From assembly GCA_964651965.1 (NCBI GenBank), contig CAZYZS010000002.1, positions 17,164 to 81,163 of the forward strand: DNA of 64,000 bases, written 5' to 3'. This stretch comes from Candidatus Woesearchaeota archaeon. GTDB lineage: Archaea; Nanobdellota; Nanobdellia; Pacearchaeales; GW2011-AR1. Below are positions 3,174 through 39,973 of this stretch, piece after piece. The position numbers and the translations under genes were made by a program. The notes under the pieces were generated by a model. That model had not been told where the DNA came from. It saw nothing but the letters and a program-made list of their open reading frames with translations, and made no database searches. The first letter of the stretch is position 1; every line of letters begins with the position of its first letter.

Positions 3174-3929
3174 TTATACAAGCTCCCCAACTTTCCCAAA
3201 CTTATAGACTTCATCTCCAACAACATAAGCCTCAAACTCTCGTAGCTCTCTCTCAGGGATAAACATCCTGTTATCTTCAAGGTTTGCTACCTCGCTGCCC
3301 TCGACAAACGGGAAAAATGAAGGAAGGATTATTACTTTTTTATCTTTCCATTTCCCAACTAAGAAACATTTGTATTTTTCTTTTTTATAATCATCAGAGA
3401 GCACAACAGCAGGATGCCTGTGCCCCAACACCAACATTTTTATCCCTTTATCCAGGCATTCTGGAAATATTTTATCACCATGAACGAAACAAACCCCCTC
3501 TTCTACATAGTAGTCCACTACGCTCAGCTCTTTTCTCTCTGCAATTGGGCCCAAAACAGTATCATGATTTCCCTTAACAAGCACAACTTTTTCAGCTTTT
3601 TCTTTGAAAATATCCAAAATTCCTTTCACCTCTCTCCATTCCTGCTCAGAAATATCTCCAAATTCATGTTTTAAATCTCCAACAACAACTATTTCTTTTA
3701 TTTTTCCTTCATTTTCTTTTTTTATTTCTTCAAAAACCTTGTTCAAATCTTTTACAGTTTCTTCAAACTGATTTCTTGGAACAAAAATTCCCTGCTCATT
3801 CAGACTTTCTTCCCATCCCAGATGCAAATCTCCTAAAACCAGGATTTTCTGCACAGGAAAATACAGGGTTTTGCCTATAAACTTAAAATCATCCATAATA
3901 AACATGTAGCTTAAGAACTTTAAAAACAA
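3174..3929 (-). CDS. calcineurin-like metallophosphoesterase
   Basis: Motifs GDLHLG, VGDLKHEFG, GNHD, GHRH. Confidence 0.7.
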   Translation of the reverse strand: MFLKFLSYMFIMDDFKFIGKTLYFPVQKILVLGDLHLGWEESLNEQGIFVPRNQFEETVKDLNKVFEEIKKENEGKIKEIVVVGDLKHEFGDISEQEWREVKGILDIFKEKAEKVVLVKGNHDTVLGPIAERKELSVVDYYVEEGVCFVHGDKIFPECLDKGIKMLVLGHRHPAVVLSDDYKKEKYKCFLVGKWKDKKVIILPSFFPFVEGSEVANLEDNRMFIPERELREFEAYVVGDEVYKFGKVGELV

Positions 3930-27793: not shown

Positions 27794-27809
27794 GTTGAAA
27801 ATTATGGAG

Positions 27810-27905
27810 TGCGGGGAGAAGGGATCGAACCTTCGCAGGCACTAAGCCACATGGTTTCTACAAGCTGCCTTAGCCATGCCCGTTTGACCGCTCCGGCATC
27901 CCCGC
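27810..27905 (-). tRNA. class II tRNA (Leu-type) with a roughly 12-nt insertion (putative intron) in the anticodon arm; anticodon not resolved
   Basis: The reverse complement reads GCGGGGATGCCGGAGCGGTCAAACGGG-CATGG...CCATG-TGGCTTAGTGCCTGC-GAAGGTTCGATCCCTTC-TCCCCGCA. It shares its acceptor, D arm, variable arm and T arm with the gene at 34711. Confidence 0.6.
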
Positions 27906-34710: not shown

Positions 34711-34832
34711 GCGGGGATGCCGGAGCGGTCAAACGGGACAGACCATAAATTTAATATGGGTCCAAACTCAAGAAAACGTTTGAGCAATCTGTTGGCTTAG
34801 TGCCTGCGTAGGTTCAATTCCTACTCCCCGCA
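34711..34832 (+). tRNA. class II tRNA (Leu-type) with an unusually long (about 45-nt) insertion in the anticodon arm; anticodon not resolved (possibly CAA)
   Basis: GCGGGGATGCCGGAGCGGTCAAACGGG-ACAGA[45 nt]TCTGT-TGGCTTAGTGCCTGC-GTAGGTTCAATTCCTAC-TCCCCGCA. The insertion contains CTCAAGA. Confidence 0.5.
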
Positions 34833-34933
34833 CTTACTCTTTTAAATAATACAAAAGGACAGCAAAGCGTAAATGCGGGCCCCCGCATCTCTCTCTAGTA
34901 TAGATTTATAAATGGTAAAAATCAACCTTTAAC

Positions 34934-35503: not shown

Positions 35504-35781
35504 GAAAGTAAGCTAAAAAGCCCTTTCTGCACAAGAAATAAAGCTACTAATACAATCATTACCAGTGGCACATTAACAGAAGTCGCAATTATAATAATTA
35601 TCGCGCAGACTATATCGATTATGCTCGCTATACTCAATCCTATTATAAAAATAACTCCCTTAACAAGTAGAATTATTCCTAAGATCATTATAAATTTTTC
35701 AGGCAGTATATGAAAAACCCCGAATATCCAAAAACATACGGCTATAAAAATATCCAAAATACCCAATAATTTGACTAGCAT
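35500..35781 (-). CDS. small membrane protein, start trimmed to an internal Met to avoid the tRNA-Arg overlap
   Basis: Hydrophobic helices. The track ORF's first 22 codons overlap the tRNA. Confidence 0.35.
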   Translation of the reverse strand: MLVKLLGILDIFIAVCFWIFGVFHILPEKFIMILGIILLVKGVIFIIGLSIASIIDIVCAIIIIIATSVNVPLVMIVLVALFLVQKGLFSLLS

Positions 35782-35817
35782 AGATTTTTTAAACAATCTT
35801 TTGCTTAAAAATGTATT

Positions 35818-35891
35818 GCCCGAGTAGCTCAGCTGGATAGAGCACAAGGTTCCTAACCTTGGGGTCGTGGGTTCAAATCCTACCTCGGGCG
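35818..35891 (+). tRNA. tRNA-Arg(CCT)
   Basis: Canonical cloverleaf of 74 nt: GCCCGAG...CAAGG-TTCCTAA-CCTTG...GTGGG-TTCAAAT-CCTAC-CTCGGGC-G. Confidence 0.8.
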
Positions 35892-35942
35892 TTTAATTTG
35901 AGGTGATAGGTTCACCTTAGATTATTTCTAAGGGCATTCAAA

Positions 35943-36749
35943 ATGAGAAACATACCAACAAAAGAAAATTATGATGGATTTGTTATGGAACTAGTTGGAG
36001 GACTGGGAAAGAAACATCCTGATATTTGTTTTTATGCTTATGGTTCATATATTGATGGGAACTGCAATTATGGCAGGAGCGATATTGATGGAGGTTTGAT
36101 ATTAAATTCAGGAATTGTCACACCTAAAGAAGAAGTATTGGATCTTGCAGCAGATCTTGCAAGCGCTTTAGGCAAAAATAGGGTAAAAACCCAGTTTAAT
36201 TTACTAGACAAGGGAACTTGTAGAGACGGAAGATTCTTGGCATATACCAAAGATTACACTGATTGGATTAGGAGAGTAGGCAAGGTACTTTCAGGTCCAA
36301 ATTATCTGGAAGATTTGAATGGATTGGACTTTAAATCAGGGGTTCTTCACAATGCCGCGTTTAATTTAAGGAAAGCAAGGAACAATCTCTTGTACTCTTT
36401 TGATACAATTAACACTGATCCGAACAGATTTCGGGAAAGAACCGAAAAAGTTTTAGAAACTTTAGCTAAACTTCCCAAATTCCTCATATGGCTAAGAAGA
36501 GGGGATATTGTTGTTCCGAGAGTCAGAGGTAGAGAAGAATTAAGAAAAATGCTGGGGGATGTAGACTTAAGCTTTCTTGAAGAATTAGAGGGCTTGCTGA
36601 CTCAACCTTCTAAGTTTTATTCTGAGCTCGAAGACACTGACAGAGCATTAAGCTTAATGGTTAAAGGCGTGGATACAATGGAACAGATGGTTCAAGCTTA
36701 TGTTCGAGAATTTCCAAAGGCTTCTGCAAGAGAGCTAAGGAAATTATGA
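35943..36749 (+). CDS. Pol-beta-superfamily nucleotidyltransferase (minimal NTase motif plus C-terminal helical domain)
   Basis: FYAYGSYIDGNCNYGRSDIDGGLIL, i.e. hG[GS]x9-13Dh[DE]h, followed by a roughly 170-aa alpha-helical region. Confidence 0.6.
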   Translation: MRNIPTKENYDGFVMELVGGLGKKHPDICFYAYGSYIDGNCNYGRSDIDGGLILNSGIVTPKEEVLDLAADLASALGKNRVKTQFNLLDKGTCRDGRFLAYTKDYTDWIRRVGKVLSGPNYLEDLNGLDFKSGVLHNAAFNLRKARNNLLYSFDTINTDPNRFRERTEKVLETLAKLPKFLIWLRRGDIVVPRVRGREELRKMLGDVDLSFLEELEGLLTQPSKFYSELEDTDRALSLMVKGVDTMEQMVQAYVREFPKASARELRKL

Positions 36750-36826
36750 TTTTCAAGAAGAATAATTTTTGAATATCTTCTGCCCTTTATCGTTAGATTT
36801 TTAAAGCGTTAGACATTAAGATACTT

Positions 36827-38002
36827 ATGGTAAAAAGAGGCATAGTAAAGGTAGTTTTTGGTGGATGGTACCAAAGGACGACCCTACATCTTTCAGAAGT
36901 GTTTCATTTTTTTTCTGAAGGAACTTCGCTTGAGAATTTCCCAAAAGACCAACTGCTCGCGTATAGAGATAGCCTTAATCTCGTCTCTGCCCAGAGGGAA
37001 TTTGGTAATCTAGAGAAAATAAAAGCAATAACGAAAGAAGGTATTAAGATAACTTATTATGAGGATGGGCTTTATCTTCTTGAGATAGCTTCTTCGGATG
37101 TGAAGAAATCTAAACAAATATTAAGCGAATATTACGAGAAAAGATTCGCACCGGCTATAAATTATATTTTTTCATTAGGTGCCCCAACTCCGAAAATCCT
37201 TTCAAATATCAGATATCCTCATTCAATAATAGTTGAAGTACTCCAAGAAAACTCCAAGAGTTATTCAGTTGATCCACGATTTGGAAGAGTTTACAGCAAG
37301 ATTTCTTATAGAGATTTTACAGTTTCCAAGACTAAAGATTATATTTTTATAGTTCTGCCTGAAAGAAAACAGGAATTTTTCGAGCCATTGAATGAAATGC
37401 AGATTTTCTTCAGGGAGTTTAAGCAGCAACTCTGGAAATATCTGAGGATACATCGAAAAGTCTGGGAAGAGATTGATAGGGTAATTGAAACTGGCAAGAT
37501 AAGAGGGAAAGAAATAAGCGAGAGATTGGGCAAGCTGCGAAGTTATCGAAGGACAGTAGGCCTGATACGTAATAGGATTAATCAGATGGACACTTATGTT
37601 AATACAAGATCTTCTCTTTCAAAATACCTTAAAGTTGATGAGCCCTTCAGAGTGCTGTTCGAATATCGCTTTGAAGACCTAACAAATACGCTAGGTTACA
37701 TTAAGGAACTATGGTCCGCAACAATAGATTATGTAGACTCTGCAATCTCTACTTTGCAGGATTTAGAAAACAGCGCAAGTGAAAGGAATCTAGAGTCAAT
37801 TAAAATCATCGCAAGCGTAGGTGTCATTTCTTTAGTTTTGGGATATCTCGCAGCAGAAAACTACCCAGCAGTCACTTTAGTGGGAGTTATCTCCCTTCTA
37901 GGATTTGCAGTTGCTGCATGGCTAATCGATTTTATAATAAAACTCTTTGCAGAAAACAGAAATTACGAAATAGTCTTTGACGAATTAGAGACAAGTTTAT
38001 AA
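36827..38002 (+). CDS. protein with a roughly 320-aa soluble N-domain and two C-terminal TM helices (CorA-like or 2TM-effector-like topology); function unknown
   Basis: TM1 SIKIIASVGVISLVLGYLAA and TM2 VTLVGVISLLGFAVAAWLIDFII. No GMN motif. Confidence 0.45.
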   Translation: MVKRGIVKVVFGGWYQRTTLHLSEVFHFFSEGTSLENFPKDQLLAYRDSLNLVSAQREFGNLEKIKAITKEGIKITYYEDGLYLLEIASSDVKKSKQILSEYYEKRFAPAINYIFSLGAPTPKILSNIRYPHSIIVEVLQENSKSYSVDPRFGRVYSKISYRDFTVSKTKDYIFIVLPERKQEFFEPLNEMQIFFREFKQQLWKYLRIHRKVWEEIDRVIETGKIRGKEISERLGKLRSYRRTVGLIRNRINQMDTYVNTRSSLSKYLKVDEPFRVLFEYRFEDLTNTLGYIKELWSATIDYVDSAISTLQDLENSASERNLESIKIIASVGVISLVLGYLAAENYPAVTLVGVISLLGFAVAAWLIDFIIKLFAENRNYEIVFDELETSL

Positions 38003-38056
38003 TTTTTCTAACGAATCCCAAACATTTAAAAAAGTCTAAAATGTACCTTTAATTAT

Positions 38057-38088
38057 GCGCTGGTAGTATAGTGGTTAGTAATAATAGC
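38057..38088 (+). pseudogene. orphan tRNA 5'-half-like fragment, a degenerate copy of tRNA-Gly positions 1-31
   Basis: GCGCTGGTAGTATAGTGGTTAGTAATAATAGC compared with the downstream GCGTGGGTAGTATAACGGCTCAGTACAATAGC. Confidence 0.35.
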
Positions 38089-38120
38089 AAGGTTTATAAA
38101 TAAAAAAGCTCTTAGAGATA

Positions 38121-38963
38121 ATGTCCTATTTTATAAAACTTGACGCTAAAGAGAGAAAAATCCTTATTCAGGAAGCAAAAGCTAACTCTTCTAAAAATTA
38201 TTGCGAATTTGCTAAAATTTTGGGGGTAAGCCGAGATATGGTTTTTAAATATTCCCGAGGAGATTACTTACTACCTAAAGAAATGTTCTATAAACTAATT
38301 GGGTTGTCTAAGCAGCATCCCAAAAGATATAAGATACTTAAAAAAGAGAAATATAATCGGAAGATTTTTACAATACCCAGTTTAAATGAAGACCTGGCAG
38401 AAATTTTTGGCGTTTTAAATGGAGATGGCCATCTAAGCAGGATAAATCACGAAATATCAGTAATCGGAAATGTTAAAACAGATGAGGTTTATTTTAGATA
38501 CCTCCAAAAGAAGTTTAAAAAAGTTTTTGGAATAGCATTTAAGGTAGAAAAATTTGAACGCTGTCTCAAGTTAAGGGCTTACTCTGTAGATTTAGTCAAC
38601 TGGCTTCACGAGGCCCATAATTTACCAAAAGGCAAGAAAAAAGGAAGTCTGACTATCCCCCCCGCTATTTTAGATAGTAACCTCCTTCTAACCTCTTATT
38701 TTAGAGGGCTATTTGATACAGATGGAACATTCTACACAAGGAGAATAAATGAGCCGGTTATTGAAATCTCAAGTGCAGACAAAAATTATCTGATGCAGAT
38801 TAAAGAAGGCCTTTCTTTTTTGGGATTCAACGTAGGTCTTGGAGAACATCGGGCGTTTATATACAACAGGAAAGAAATCAAAAAATTCTTTACTTATATA
38901 GAACCGGCCAATCCCAAACATTTAAAAAAGTTCATATTTTACAATAAAGATATGCGTGGGTAG
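38121..38963 (+). mobile_element. LAGLIDADG homing endonuclease (two-motif, single-chain) with an N-terminal HTH
   Basis: LAEIFGVLNGDGHL and YFRGLFDTDGTF motifs. The stop codon lies inside the tRNA-Gly acceptor stem. Confidence 0.75.
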
Positions 38964-39026
38964 TATAACGGCTCAGTACAATAGCCTTCCAAGCTATTTA
39001 TCCGGGTTCGAATCCCGGCCCGCGCA
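38954..39026 (+). tRNA. tRNA-Gly(TCC)
   Basis: GCGTGGG-TA-GTAT...ATAGC-CTTCCAA-GCTAT-...CCGGG-TTCGAAT-CCCGG-CCCGCGC-A. Confidence 0.8.
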
Positions 39027-39079
39027 TATAAAAAGCCTTATAAACCGATTATTTCTTGTTGAAATAACGAATATCCAAA

Positions 39080-39973
39080 ATGGAAGAAACACAAAAAACA
39101 GAAAAACAATCTTGGTATAATAAATGGTACAAGGTTTTATTTGTAATACCCATAATAATAATGGTTCTTTCTTTAATTTATTTGGGGATGTTTTATTCTA
39201 AACACAAGGATATTATGTATAGGGATGTTTCTCTTTCAGGAGGGACAACTATTACCTTAAAAGGAGATGTAGATTCGGCAGATTTTGAGAGCTCATTGAA
39301 ACAAAATTTTCCAGATGTTAGTTTTAGAAGATTAACTAACTTAAGGACAGGCGAGCCAATAGCTCTTATGATAGAAAGCTCATCTTCCCCAGAGGTGCTG
39401 AAGTCGGCAGTAGAATCTGAACTCGGCTATAATTTGACTTCTGATAATTCAAGCGTAGAGTTTACTGGAGCAACTTTAAGCCAGGGTTTTTATAAGCAGT
39501 TGATTTATGCTCTCATTGCCTCTTTTATACTAATGGCGATAGTTATCTTTATTCTCTTCAGGACTTTTATTCCAGGTGCAGCAGTTCTTTTTGCAGTATT
39601 TTCAGATTTAGTTATAACCCTTGCAGTAGTAGACTATTTTGGAATCAAGCTTTCAGCAGCAGGCATAGCCGCTTTTCTTATGCTAATAGGTTATGCTGTA
39701 GATGATAACATTCTGTTAACAACCCGCGCTCTTAAGAAAAAAGAAGGCCCACTCAACAAAAGACTTTATGGGGCATTTAAAACCGGTATTTTAATGACTG
39801 GAACTGCTTTAGCAGCAATCATTCCTGTTTTGCTCTTGATGGGCACCCTGCCAGACTCTTTCAAACAGATTTTTTTAATCCTCGCTCTTGGCTTGGTTGC
39901 GGACCTATTCAACACTTGGCTCACAAACGTGGGGATAATTAAATGGTATTGTGATAAAAAACACATAGATTAA
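39080..39973 (+). CDS. secF: protein-export membrane protein SecF
   Basis: Six-TM SecDF-family topology and position just upstream of secD. Confidence 0.75.
   Translation: MEETQKTEKQSWYNKWYKVLFVIPIIIMVLSLIYLGMFYSKHKDIMYRDVSLSGGTTITLKGDVDSADFESSLKQNFPDVSFRRLTNLRTGEPIALMIESSSSPEVLKSAVESELGYNLTSDNSSVEFTGATLSQGFYKQLIYALIASFILMAIVIFILFRTFIPGAAVLFAVFSDLVITLAVVDYFGIKLSAAGIAAFLMLIGYAVDDNILLTTRALKKKEGPLNKRLYGAFKTGILMTGTALAAIIPVLLLMGTLPDSFKQIFLILALGLVADLFNTWLTNVGIIKWYCDKKHID

Follow-up and report, generated by a model that had tools for sequence, protein, structure and literature searches.

A LAGLIDADG gene lodged at tRNA-Gly(UCC) of a DPANN archaeon, with a displaced tRNA 5′ piece upstream: a probable homing-endonuclease cassette

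The DNA considered here is a 64,000-nucleotide stretch (the window) of a Candidatus Woesearchaeota genome, contig CAZYZS010000002.1, positions 17,164 to 81,163 of the forward strand, and the element in question is a gene for a two-motif LAGLIDADG protein that stands free between a 5′ fragment of a tRNA gene and an intact tRNA-Gly(UCC). An initial annotation made from the letters alone had described this arrangement, and each of the elements it named is indeed there (Table 1). The open reading frame (ORF) of this presumed homing-endonuclease gene (HEG) runs into the tRNA at its 3′ end, where its sense codons ATG-CGT-GGG supply the acceptor 5′ strand (tRNA positions 1–7). Its TAG stop codon (38961–38963) had been placed within the acceptor stem; it does lie inside the tRNA, but at positions 8–10, immediately beyond the stem. 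At the other end, the fragment begins at 38057, 64 nt ahead of the ORF ATG (about 65 nt in the initial annotation). Two repeat pairs were recovered by a repeat search, one joining 38054–38088 to 38951–38985 (71% identity) and the other joining 38014–38046 to 38910–38942 (85% identity, the first 22 nt being identical). Three TATA elements are present, and their roles as promoters of the fragment, the HEG and the tRNA are predicted from consensus and position. Because the HEG box ends so close to the ATG, a near-leaderless mRNA is expected.

Table 1. Features of the tRNA-Gly(UCC) locus, in window coordinates
Feature	Position	Strand	Remarks
Insert relative to empty site	38002..38933	+	without counterpart in L088, the closest relative found (blastn)
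Putative fragment promoter, archaeal TATA type, AATCCCAAACATTTAAAAAAGT	38014..38035	+	~29 nt ahead of fragment +1; from consensus and position
tRNA-Gly(UCC) 5′ fragment, positions 1–24 (acceptor 5′ strand and D-arm)	38057..38080	+	reads GCGCTGGTAGTATAGTGGTTAGTA
Cassette left end: A-rich stretch like a B recognition element (BRE), and HEG TATA box	38081..38102	+	presumed function
HEG's own TATA box TTTATAAATA	38093-38102	+	ends 18 nt ahead of ATG; presumed function
Free-standing monomeric LAGLIDADG ORF, 280 aa	38121..38963	+	Pfam LAGLIDADG_3 (PF14528)
LAGLIDADG motif 1 LAEIFGVLNGDGHL	38394..38435, aa 92-105	+	candidate catalytic D102
LAGLIDADG motif 2 LTSYFRGLFDTDGTF	38688..38732, aa 190-204	+	candidate catalytic D201
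NPKHLKKF codons, DNA AAACATTTAAAAAAG	38910..38933	+	putative TATA box of downstream tRNA; mosaic crossover point
Intact intron-less tRNA-Gly(UCC)	38954..39026	+	Rfam tRNA model 66.4 bits; ARAGORN 38953-39027

The protein matches its Pfam family above the cut-off (E=4e-8), and 161 homologues of ~280 aa were found in DPANN metagenomes and metagenome-assembled genomes (MAGs), some of them labeled ‘WhiA’ by their sources. Over 23 homologues, both LAGLIDADG motifs carry acidic residues, D102 being invariant and D201 acidic in at least 90%. An AF2 model from the 23 homologues (mean pLDDT 92.4) has an N-terminal four-helix domain resembling a helix-turn-helix (HTH; aa 1–~75), followed by two alpha-beta-beta-alpha-beta-beta-alpha domains. 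The best Foldseek matches of this model are the TliVMA intein endonuclease, I-Tsp061I, I-AniI and I-DmoI (E 1e-9 to 1e-6), with WhiA matched more weakly than the intein and intron endonucleases, and a sequence search of the PDB returned weak matches only, to intein endonucleases. From the conserved acidic residues and the confidently modeled endonuclease fold, the enzyme is probably active. The family also shares a C-terminal motif, N-x-K-H-L-K-K, whose coding DNA is near-invariant and is at the same time an archaeal TATA-like sequence at an appropriate distance from the tRNA, roughly 20 nt of spacer separating the KHLKK codons from the resident tRNA gene.

For comparison we examined the contigs of close homologues together with those of ~40 full-length homologues from named Woese-, Pace- and Nanoarchaeota genomes; these loci are designated by L numbers. 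Nearly all of the loci, ~45 of them occupied and drawn from independent assemblies, have the same layout: a TATA box, tRNA positions 1–24, ~10 A-rich nt, TTTATAA, ~20–25 nt, the HEG ATG, a further TATA box within the HEG KHLKK codons, and a complete tRNA-Gly(UCC), often intron-bearing in the related loci, at the end of the ORF. An intact second tRNA in place of the fragment, which the initial annotation had named as the arrangement that would speak against its reading, was never seen in the ~45 occupied loci.

The association with tRNA genes extends to related families. A paralogous LAGLIDADG family (331–336 aa, 25–32% identical to the window enzyme) lies directly upstream of tRNA-Arg(CCU) in the order tRNA-Arg positions 1–~24, TATA box, ORF, and complete tRNA-Arg overlapping the ORF end; these loci are intact in L111, L125, L156 and L162 and degraded in L114 and L131, and the family also occurs in L046. 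More distant relatives are found directly upstream of other tRNAs, including tRNA-Ser(CGA) in bacteria of the candidate phyla radiation (CPR), where the LAGLIDADG genes of L049 and L050 (Paceibacterota / Saccharibacteria MAGs) encode a C-terminal SSNxKH and lie ~20 nt upstream of the tRNA; no obvious tRNA-Ser fragment was seen upstream of these two genes. L005 had appeared to offer a second genomic context for the element, with a bacterial PheRS with FDX-ACB domain, HU, MerR and the 5′ half of a bacterial-type tRNA fused to the archaeal locus at ~3800–3900. We set it aside because the bacterial genes upstream are joined within the tRNA T-arm, and the contig is probably an assembly chimera.

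The site is empty in the closest relative found, L088. There both flanks align with the window at 81% identity (blastn; window 35672–38001 with L088 11–2327, and 38934–42000 with L088 2345–5417), and the 17 bp between the matching blocks hold neither the fragment nor the HEG. L088 shares with the window two ORFs upstream, tRNA-Gly, SecF and SecD. Using the SecF protein as bait in a scan of metagenomes, we recovered 80 syntenic loci, usually in the gene order tRNA-Leu(CAA), tRNA-Arg(CCU), tRNA-Gly(UCC), SecF, SecD; 43 could be classified and 37 could not. Six of the 43 carry the HEG and 37 are empty (~14% occupied), so that the comparison of empty and occupied sites that had been proposed as a check finds the empty site in L088 and in 36 further loci.

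The HEG does not follow the host gene beside it. HEG and SecF identities are weakly correlated (Spearman 0.35 over 351 pairs); the window and L089 are 77% identical in SecF and 45% in the HEG, and the window and L007 are 44% identical in SecF and 57% in the HEG. The window ORF is itself a mosaic, in which aa 1–270 resemble the L001/L003 type (60–93% identity per 30-residue bin), aa 271–280 equal those of L089 (100% of residues), and 39 of the 41 nt in the last codons and spacer are those of L089. As the mosaic halves meet there, the crossover is placed at the KHLKK/TATA motif. Degraded HEG copies occur in L016, L114 and L131. Occupied and empty alleles, a HEG incongruent with its host and a mosaic ORF are what a mobile LAGLIDADG homing endonuclease is expected to leave, and the initial suggestion that the locus is the footprint of a homing or insertion event is borne out by the empty site in L088, the patchy occupancy (6 vs 37) and the incongruence with SecF.

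Empty loci may retain traces of former occupation. In L098, L114, L136 and L145, the promoter and spacer of the empty tRNA-Gly align with the last ~35 nt of the HEG ORF plus spacer of occupied relatives; for L136 and L152, ~30 of 32 nt match by eye. These promoters resembling a HEG tail may be deletion scars of lost cassettes, and the patchy occupancy, incongruence, degraded copies and tail-like promoters fit, as sequence patterns, cycles of gain, decay and loss. The fragment's upstream promoter in the window is of the same kind, consisting of exactly the 22 nt that code for NPKHLKK at the HEG 3′ end (exact matches at 38014 and 38910). Recent duplication was considered as the source of this repeat and rejected, as 16 of the 22 nt are near-invariant family-wide and the other 6 occur often; a promoter that descends from a HEG tail, as in the four empty loci, is the better reading of it.

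To place the fragment, we aligned every collected tRNA-Gly gene with the upstream elements of 32 occupied loci. The fragment corresponds to tRNA positions 1–24, with its right boundary at ~24–25 in almost every locus, and the junction is therefore near 24/25 and not at 31, where it had first been drawn. The motif AAATAG lies just past position 24 in many loci, whatever the local anticodon stem, and the similarity past position 24 in the window (AATAGC) is probably not tRNA-derived. The window fragment is identical over 24/24 nt to positions 1–24 of the empty-site tRNA-Gly(UCC) of L096 and is also identical to the L008 and L009 fragments; besides the window, the fragments of L001, L008, L009, L014 and L152 are 24/24 identical to genuine tRNA-Gly genes. 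The match is not a chance one: within the window, the 18-mer GTAGTATAGTGGTTAGTA occurs once, against 0.03 occurrences expected. The resident tRNA is of another allele, with acceptor GCGTGGG/CCCGCGC and a 9-nt D-loop, AACGGCTCA. Thus the differences between the fragment and its neighboring tRNA reflect descent from another tRNA-Gly allele, not decay, and the description of the fragment as a degenerate duplicate of its neighbor gives way to another: judged from the alignments, it is the displaced 5′ part of a pre-existing, formerly intact tRNA-Gly(UCC) allele.

Two further loci indicate where this allele came from. When L108 is compared with the empty locus L101, homology covers the upstream flank and the native promoter, stops at tRNA position ~20 and picks up again ~30 nt past the tRNA, and the L152 fragment belongs to the allele type found in L136 and L145, its empty relatives. 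By these two comparisons the fragment is host-derived. Both L108 and L152 thus have a host-type fragment and a foreign-type resident tRNA.

Partial tRNA copies next to tRNA genes are a classic signature of site-specific integration, and extra tRNA 3′-end remnants near L001 might also be taken to point to the scar of an integrase-type element or virus at a tRNA attachment site, or to a local tandem duplication around an unrelated ORF. However, the 930-bp insert codes for the LAGLIDADG protein only, with no integrase or recombinase; what is duplicated is the 5′ end together with its promoter, from an allele other than that of the resident tRNA; and the same ORF family accompanies the arrangement every time. 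The locus does not have the makeup of an integrase-type att-site element, and we give this explanation almost no credence. The remnants in L001 consist of a tRNA-Arg 3′ end repeated ahead of the fragment (~590–780) and an orphan tRNA-Gly 3′ remnant (…CCGGGTAGGCTGGCGCA) just past the resident tRNA-Gly (~1830–1880), and they look like further recombination or integration scars at the tRNA cluster.

Another reading takes the fragment as the 5′ exon or half of a giant-intron, broken or split tRNA, which would be joined to a 3′ part in cis over the ~900-nt ORF or in trans and yield a second tRNA-Gly, its transcripts linking the fragment end ...GGTTAGTA to resident tRNA position 25 onward; alternatively, the fragment would be the remnant of a bulge-helix-bulge (BHB) intron that formerly contained the endonuclease. 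Archaeal split and tri-split tRNAs are known, including tRNA-Gly, and the fragment does have a conserved promoter at the correct distance. The fragment acceptor strand matches the resident 3′ strand in L001, L003, L009 and L104, and in the window the fragment plus the resident 3′ part, which the initial annotation had suggested could form an alternative tRNA, is still called tRNA-Gly by ARAGORN. This chimera nevertheless has U5·C68 and G10·A25 mismatches, at least one acceptor mismatch is present in L007, L012, L013, L014, L026, L108 and L152, and in about half of the occupied loci, ~16, the fragment has no acceptor strand at all while retaining the D-arm. When native and chimeric tRNAs and a junction mini-construct were folded, no BHB appeared in the chimera or in the minimum free energy (MFE) fold of the construct, and no complementary leader or trailer sequence was found at the locus. 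A T-loop pattern search of the window gave no orphan tRNA 3′ half, the two further sites with the pattern being complete intron-containing tRNAs whose acceptor stems do not match. Rfam Intron_gpI had no match at the gathering threshold in the whole window and none at E<=10 in 37900–39200, the tRNA being all that either scan recovered. Since the ORF is always followed by a complete tRNA of identical anticodon, a spliced second product would be redundant. The loss of the acceptor strand across loci is decisive: the promoter is present, but acceptor pairing is not maintained, as it would be in a BHB-intron or Nanoarchaeum-type split tRNA. With the absence of BHB and group I signals at the locus, the complete and independent tRNA downstream, and the acceptor mismatches and losses, the tRNA-intron remnant offered initially as an alternative finds no support, and splicing in any of these forms is very unlikely.

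The other side of the exchange, the part of the tRNA that arrives with the HEG, is seen most clearly in L001. Its fragment equals type-D positions 1–24. In its resident tRNA, a new D-arm that contains a D-loop intron is joined to the native type-D 3′ two-thirds, which include a rare variable-arm intron common to the empty loci L143 and L090. From L001 it appears that the cassette supplies both a promoter and a replacement for the 5′ third of the tRNA; in other loci the exchange took in the entire tRNA, as co-conversion would lead one to expect. The window resident tRNA has a 3′ half identical to that of the occupied relative L089 and differs from the tRNA of empty L088 by compensatory acceptor-stem changes.

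Displaced and resident sequences also differ at D-loop positions 14–15. These read AG in 24–25 of the 32 displaced fragments, in 16 of 33 empty-site tRNAs and, uninterrupted, in 5 of 30 HEG-linked resident tRNAs; in four further resident tRNAs the AG is immediately followed by an intron (fragments vs residents, Fisher p = 1e-6, uncorrected for relatedness). The pattern is suggestive and would fit G15 alleles being cut while the cassette travels with a resistant copy.

Non-canonical introns occur in the tRNA-Gly(UCC) genes of this clade (L001 1683–1822, L003 4833–4932, L009, L104 925–1024, L090, L091, L096 and L143). An intron of ~27 nt in the D-loop, directly after A14-G15, occurs in endonuclease-linked copies only, and one of ~40 nt in the variable-arm region occurs in several empty-site copies. 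ARAGORN either fails on the intron-bearing genes or assigns them to other amino acids such as Lys, Cys, Phe or Trp. Elsewhere, in L031 (~2870–2975), two nested tRNA-Gly 5′ fragments precede one endonuclease gene, the outer having 18 nt identical to the start of the resident tRNA; this nesting suggests two successive invasions.

Taken together, we consider it likely that a homing-endonuclease cassette occupies the tRNA-Gly(UCC) gene of this DPANN archaeon, which is of the Woese-/Pace-/Nanoarchaeota kind, and that the cassette is a mobile element and not a decaying accident. The enzyme would cut sensitive tRNA-Gly alleles around the boundary between D-arm and anticodon stem, and the break would be repaired from an occupied allele, so that the cassette is copied in after position ~24. 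It would carry with it a promoter and a substitute tRNA 5′ third, or possibly the whole tRNA through co-conversion, and because the cassette supplies the promoter and the 5′ part, neither an intron nor an intein would be needed to restore the tRNA gene. The native 5′ piece would be displaced and left upstream with its own promoter. Resistance of the resident copy to cleavage would come from its changed D-loop, namely A15 for G15, an extra base, or an intron exactly there. For the window itself, a HEG body of the L001/L003 type followed by ten last codons, spacer and tRNA of the L089 type implies that cassettes were swapped at a site already occupied or scarred, which indicates a history probably more tangled than a single insertion.

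Several points weigh against this proposal. Cleavage and homing are putative, site-specific cutting of the empty allele being deduced from the constant ~24/25 junction and the G15/A15 bias, and both the target site and the resistance of the resident are read from sequence patterns in counts that are not phylogenetically independent. The clean picture of a native 3′ part joined to a cassette 5′ part comes from a single locus, L001; in L108 and the window the whole tRNA differs from that of relatives, which would make the right boundary variable or blurred by co-conversion. The promoter ahead of the window fragment is not the native promoter of the L088 type, and the window's own insertion history is only partly reconstructed. 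The synteny of HEG, tRNA-Gly and SecF holds across very divergent genomes, which implies that much of the inheritance is vertical and long-term. Finally, the fragment and its upstream TATA box are 86–96% identical within related clades, compared with 28–62% for the adjacent spacers. This is not how a neutral relic behaves, and something must maintain both; the keeper could be a function as homology arm, operator or leader, and the model as it stands leaves the conservation unexplained.

This conservation makes a domesticated regulator the most serious rival, fragment and promoter being so much better conserved than the spacers. On that account the protein is a WhiA-like LAGLIDADG DNA-binding regulator of the tRNA-Gly/SecDF neighborhood or of itself, immobile, with the fragment as its operator. 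The TATA box at the matching distance ahead of the fragment is kept in 15 of 15 aligned loci, and the HEG TTTATAA box stands at the same place in all aligned occupied loci (76–100% identity), so that fragment and both boxes are conserved in the manner of functional sites. The N-terminal HTH-like domain, the structural similarity to WhiA, the name given to some homologues and the persistence of the SecF/SecD synteny across deep divergence point the same way, and there is a precedent in I-TevI, a homing endonuclease that represses its own promoter via a target-like site. An immobile regulator, however, does not sit well with a gene present in only ~14% of the classifiable related loci and missing from the closest relative found, incongruent with SecF, mosaic in the window and degraded in some genomes, and acidic residues lost in WhiA are conserved in this family. 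We therefore judge domestication in place of mobility unlikely. Autoregulation through a half-site would be compatible with a mobile cassette and need not be its rival, and for the retention of the fragment we favor selection on the element itself, the fragment acting as a putative homology arm or half-site operator.

To our knowledge, homing endonucleases are thought to persist in essential genes only inside self-splicing introns or inteins, and otherwise to sit between genes, where they do no harm. The proposed cassette would be a third solution, found in cellular archaea, in which the element cuts a tRNA gene and repairs it with its own promoter and a spare 5′ segment. Such an element is best classed with homing-endonuclease elements that bring along a replacement gene end. 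In architecture it comes nearest to the mobile ORFs (mORFs) of fungal mitochondria (Allomyces macrogynus atp6; Glomus atp6, atp9, cox2 and nad3), which are free-standing LAGLIDADG or GIY-YIG ORFs carrying a substitute C-terminus; the inserted part comes from another lineage, and the native end is left as an unexpressed or orphan duplicate (PMC3630166). There, as here, an endonuclease ORF invades a gene, brings a foreign replacement and leaves the native part behind, and endonuclease ORF, foreign replacement part and displaced native part are all present in L001, L108 and L152, an analogy of architecture. The mORFs, in contrast, invade protein-coding genes, replace the 3′ end in frame and use the host promoter; what is new here is an archaeal chromosomal tRNA gene as host, a replaced 5′ end, and a promoter embedded in the ORF. 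With the 5′ end replaced, the element must supply the promoter, which it does from its own last codons, and the displaced piece keeps its original promoter.

The Seg enzymes of phage T4 provide the nearest mechanistic analogue. They cut the corresponding locus of a relative and spread with flanking markers by co-conversion, while the target in their own genome is resistant. SegB, like the present enzyme, needs no intron or intein and acts in a tRNA gene region. The Seg enzymes differ in being GIY-YIG proteins encoded between genes, in a phage and not in cellular archaea, and they leave the target gene uninterrupted and no gene fragment behind. This intronless homing by SegB, SegF and SegG was reportedly described by Belle et al. 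in 2002 and Brok-Volchanskaya et al. in 2008. PMC13096335 likewise mentions SegB and tRNA.

The archaeal LAGLIDADG genes that we know to have been described so far are in rRNA introns or inteins. I-DmoI, I-Tsp061I and I-PorI share the fold and the two-domain monomer with the window enzyme; unlike it, they are encoded inside spliced rRNA introns and lack the extra N-terminal helical domain of ~75 aa, whereas here the host is a tRNA gene and there is no intron. All 39 of 39 archaeal group I introns surveyed are in rRNA genes, and DPANN archaea are among the hosts of LAGLIDADG genes (PMC6125680). Our literature search, with its incomplete coverage, turned up no account of LAGLIDADG cassettes lodged in tRNA genes of archaea.

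Integrase-made tRNA fragments and the split tRNAs of Nanoarchaeum and Caldivirga resemble the locus in having a promoter-bearing or orphan tRNA piece apart from the rest. They differ in that no integrase and no trans-splicing signals were found here, and the complete functional tRNA makes the fragment dispensable. According to a proposal by Chan et al., split tRNA genes could arise through a mobile element aimed at a single defined position in a single tRNA (PMC3218864). The cassette is a concrete candidate for such an element, as it would be site-specific and leaves behind, at a constant position, a 5′ tRNA piece that can be transcribed.

Whether the locus represents an unrecognized class of archaeal mobile element is a more tentative matter, and one on which we lean somewhat to the negative. 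This class would consist of tRNA-specialized homing endonucleases (Gly-UCC and Arg-CCU) that bypass introns by carrying a promoter and a resistant 5′ third, have the fragment retained by selection as left homology arm, as half-site operator of the enzyme or as both, and drive the turnover of D-arms. If it exists, it would imply rapid turnover of tRNA D-arm alleles and a possible origin of archaeal split tRNA genes. Close DPANN relatives have strikingly different tRNA-Gly D-arms and acceptor stems, and turnover driven by cassettes would explain this divergence. The family members are, in addition, natural meganuclease candidates whose tRNA-gene targets, of ~20 bp, appear to be defined.

The surroundings of the locus hold further features. 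Only in the window (35943–38002) and L088 (287–2328) is the space between tRNA-Arg(CCU) and tRNA-Gly taken up by two ORFs; the first (268 aa) has a weak nucleotidyltransferase (Pol-beta-like) match, and the second (391 aa) has no family match and a C-terminal membrane segment. Since the gap from tRNA-Arg(CCU) to tRNA-Gly is 40–120 nt in most relatives, this two-ORF block may be a separate insertion. The window also contains a tRNA-Leu(CAA)-like gene with an intron between 5S rRNA and tRNA-Arg (34711–34833, + strand), a further intron-bearing tRNA (2519–2615, + strand), and a class-II tRNA to which ARAGORN gives a 4-base anticodon (27809–27905, − strand). Standard scans miss or mis-call all three, and the same caution applies to annotation of these genomes in general, where standard tRNA finders miss or mis-call both the 5′ fragments and the multi-intron tRNAs.

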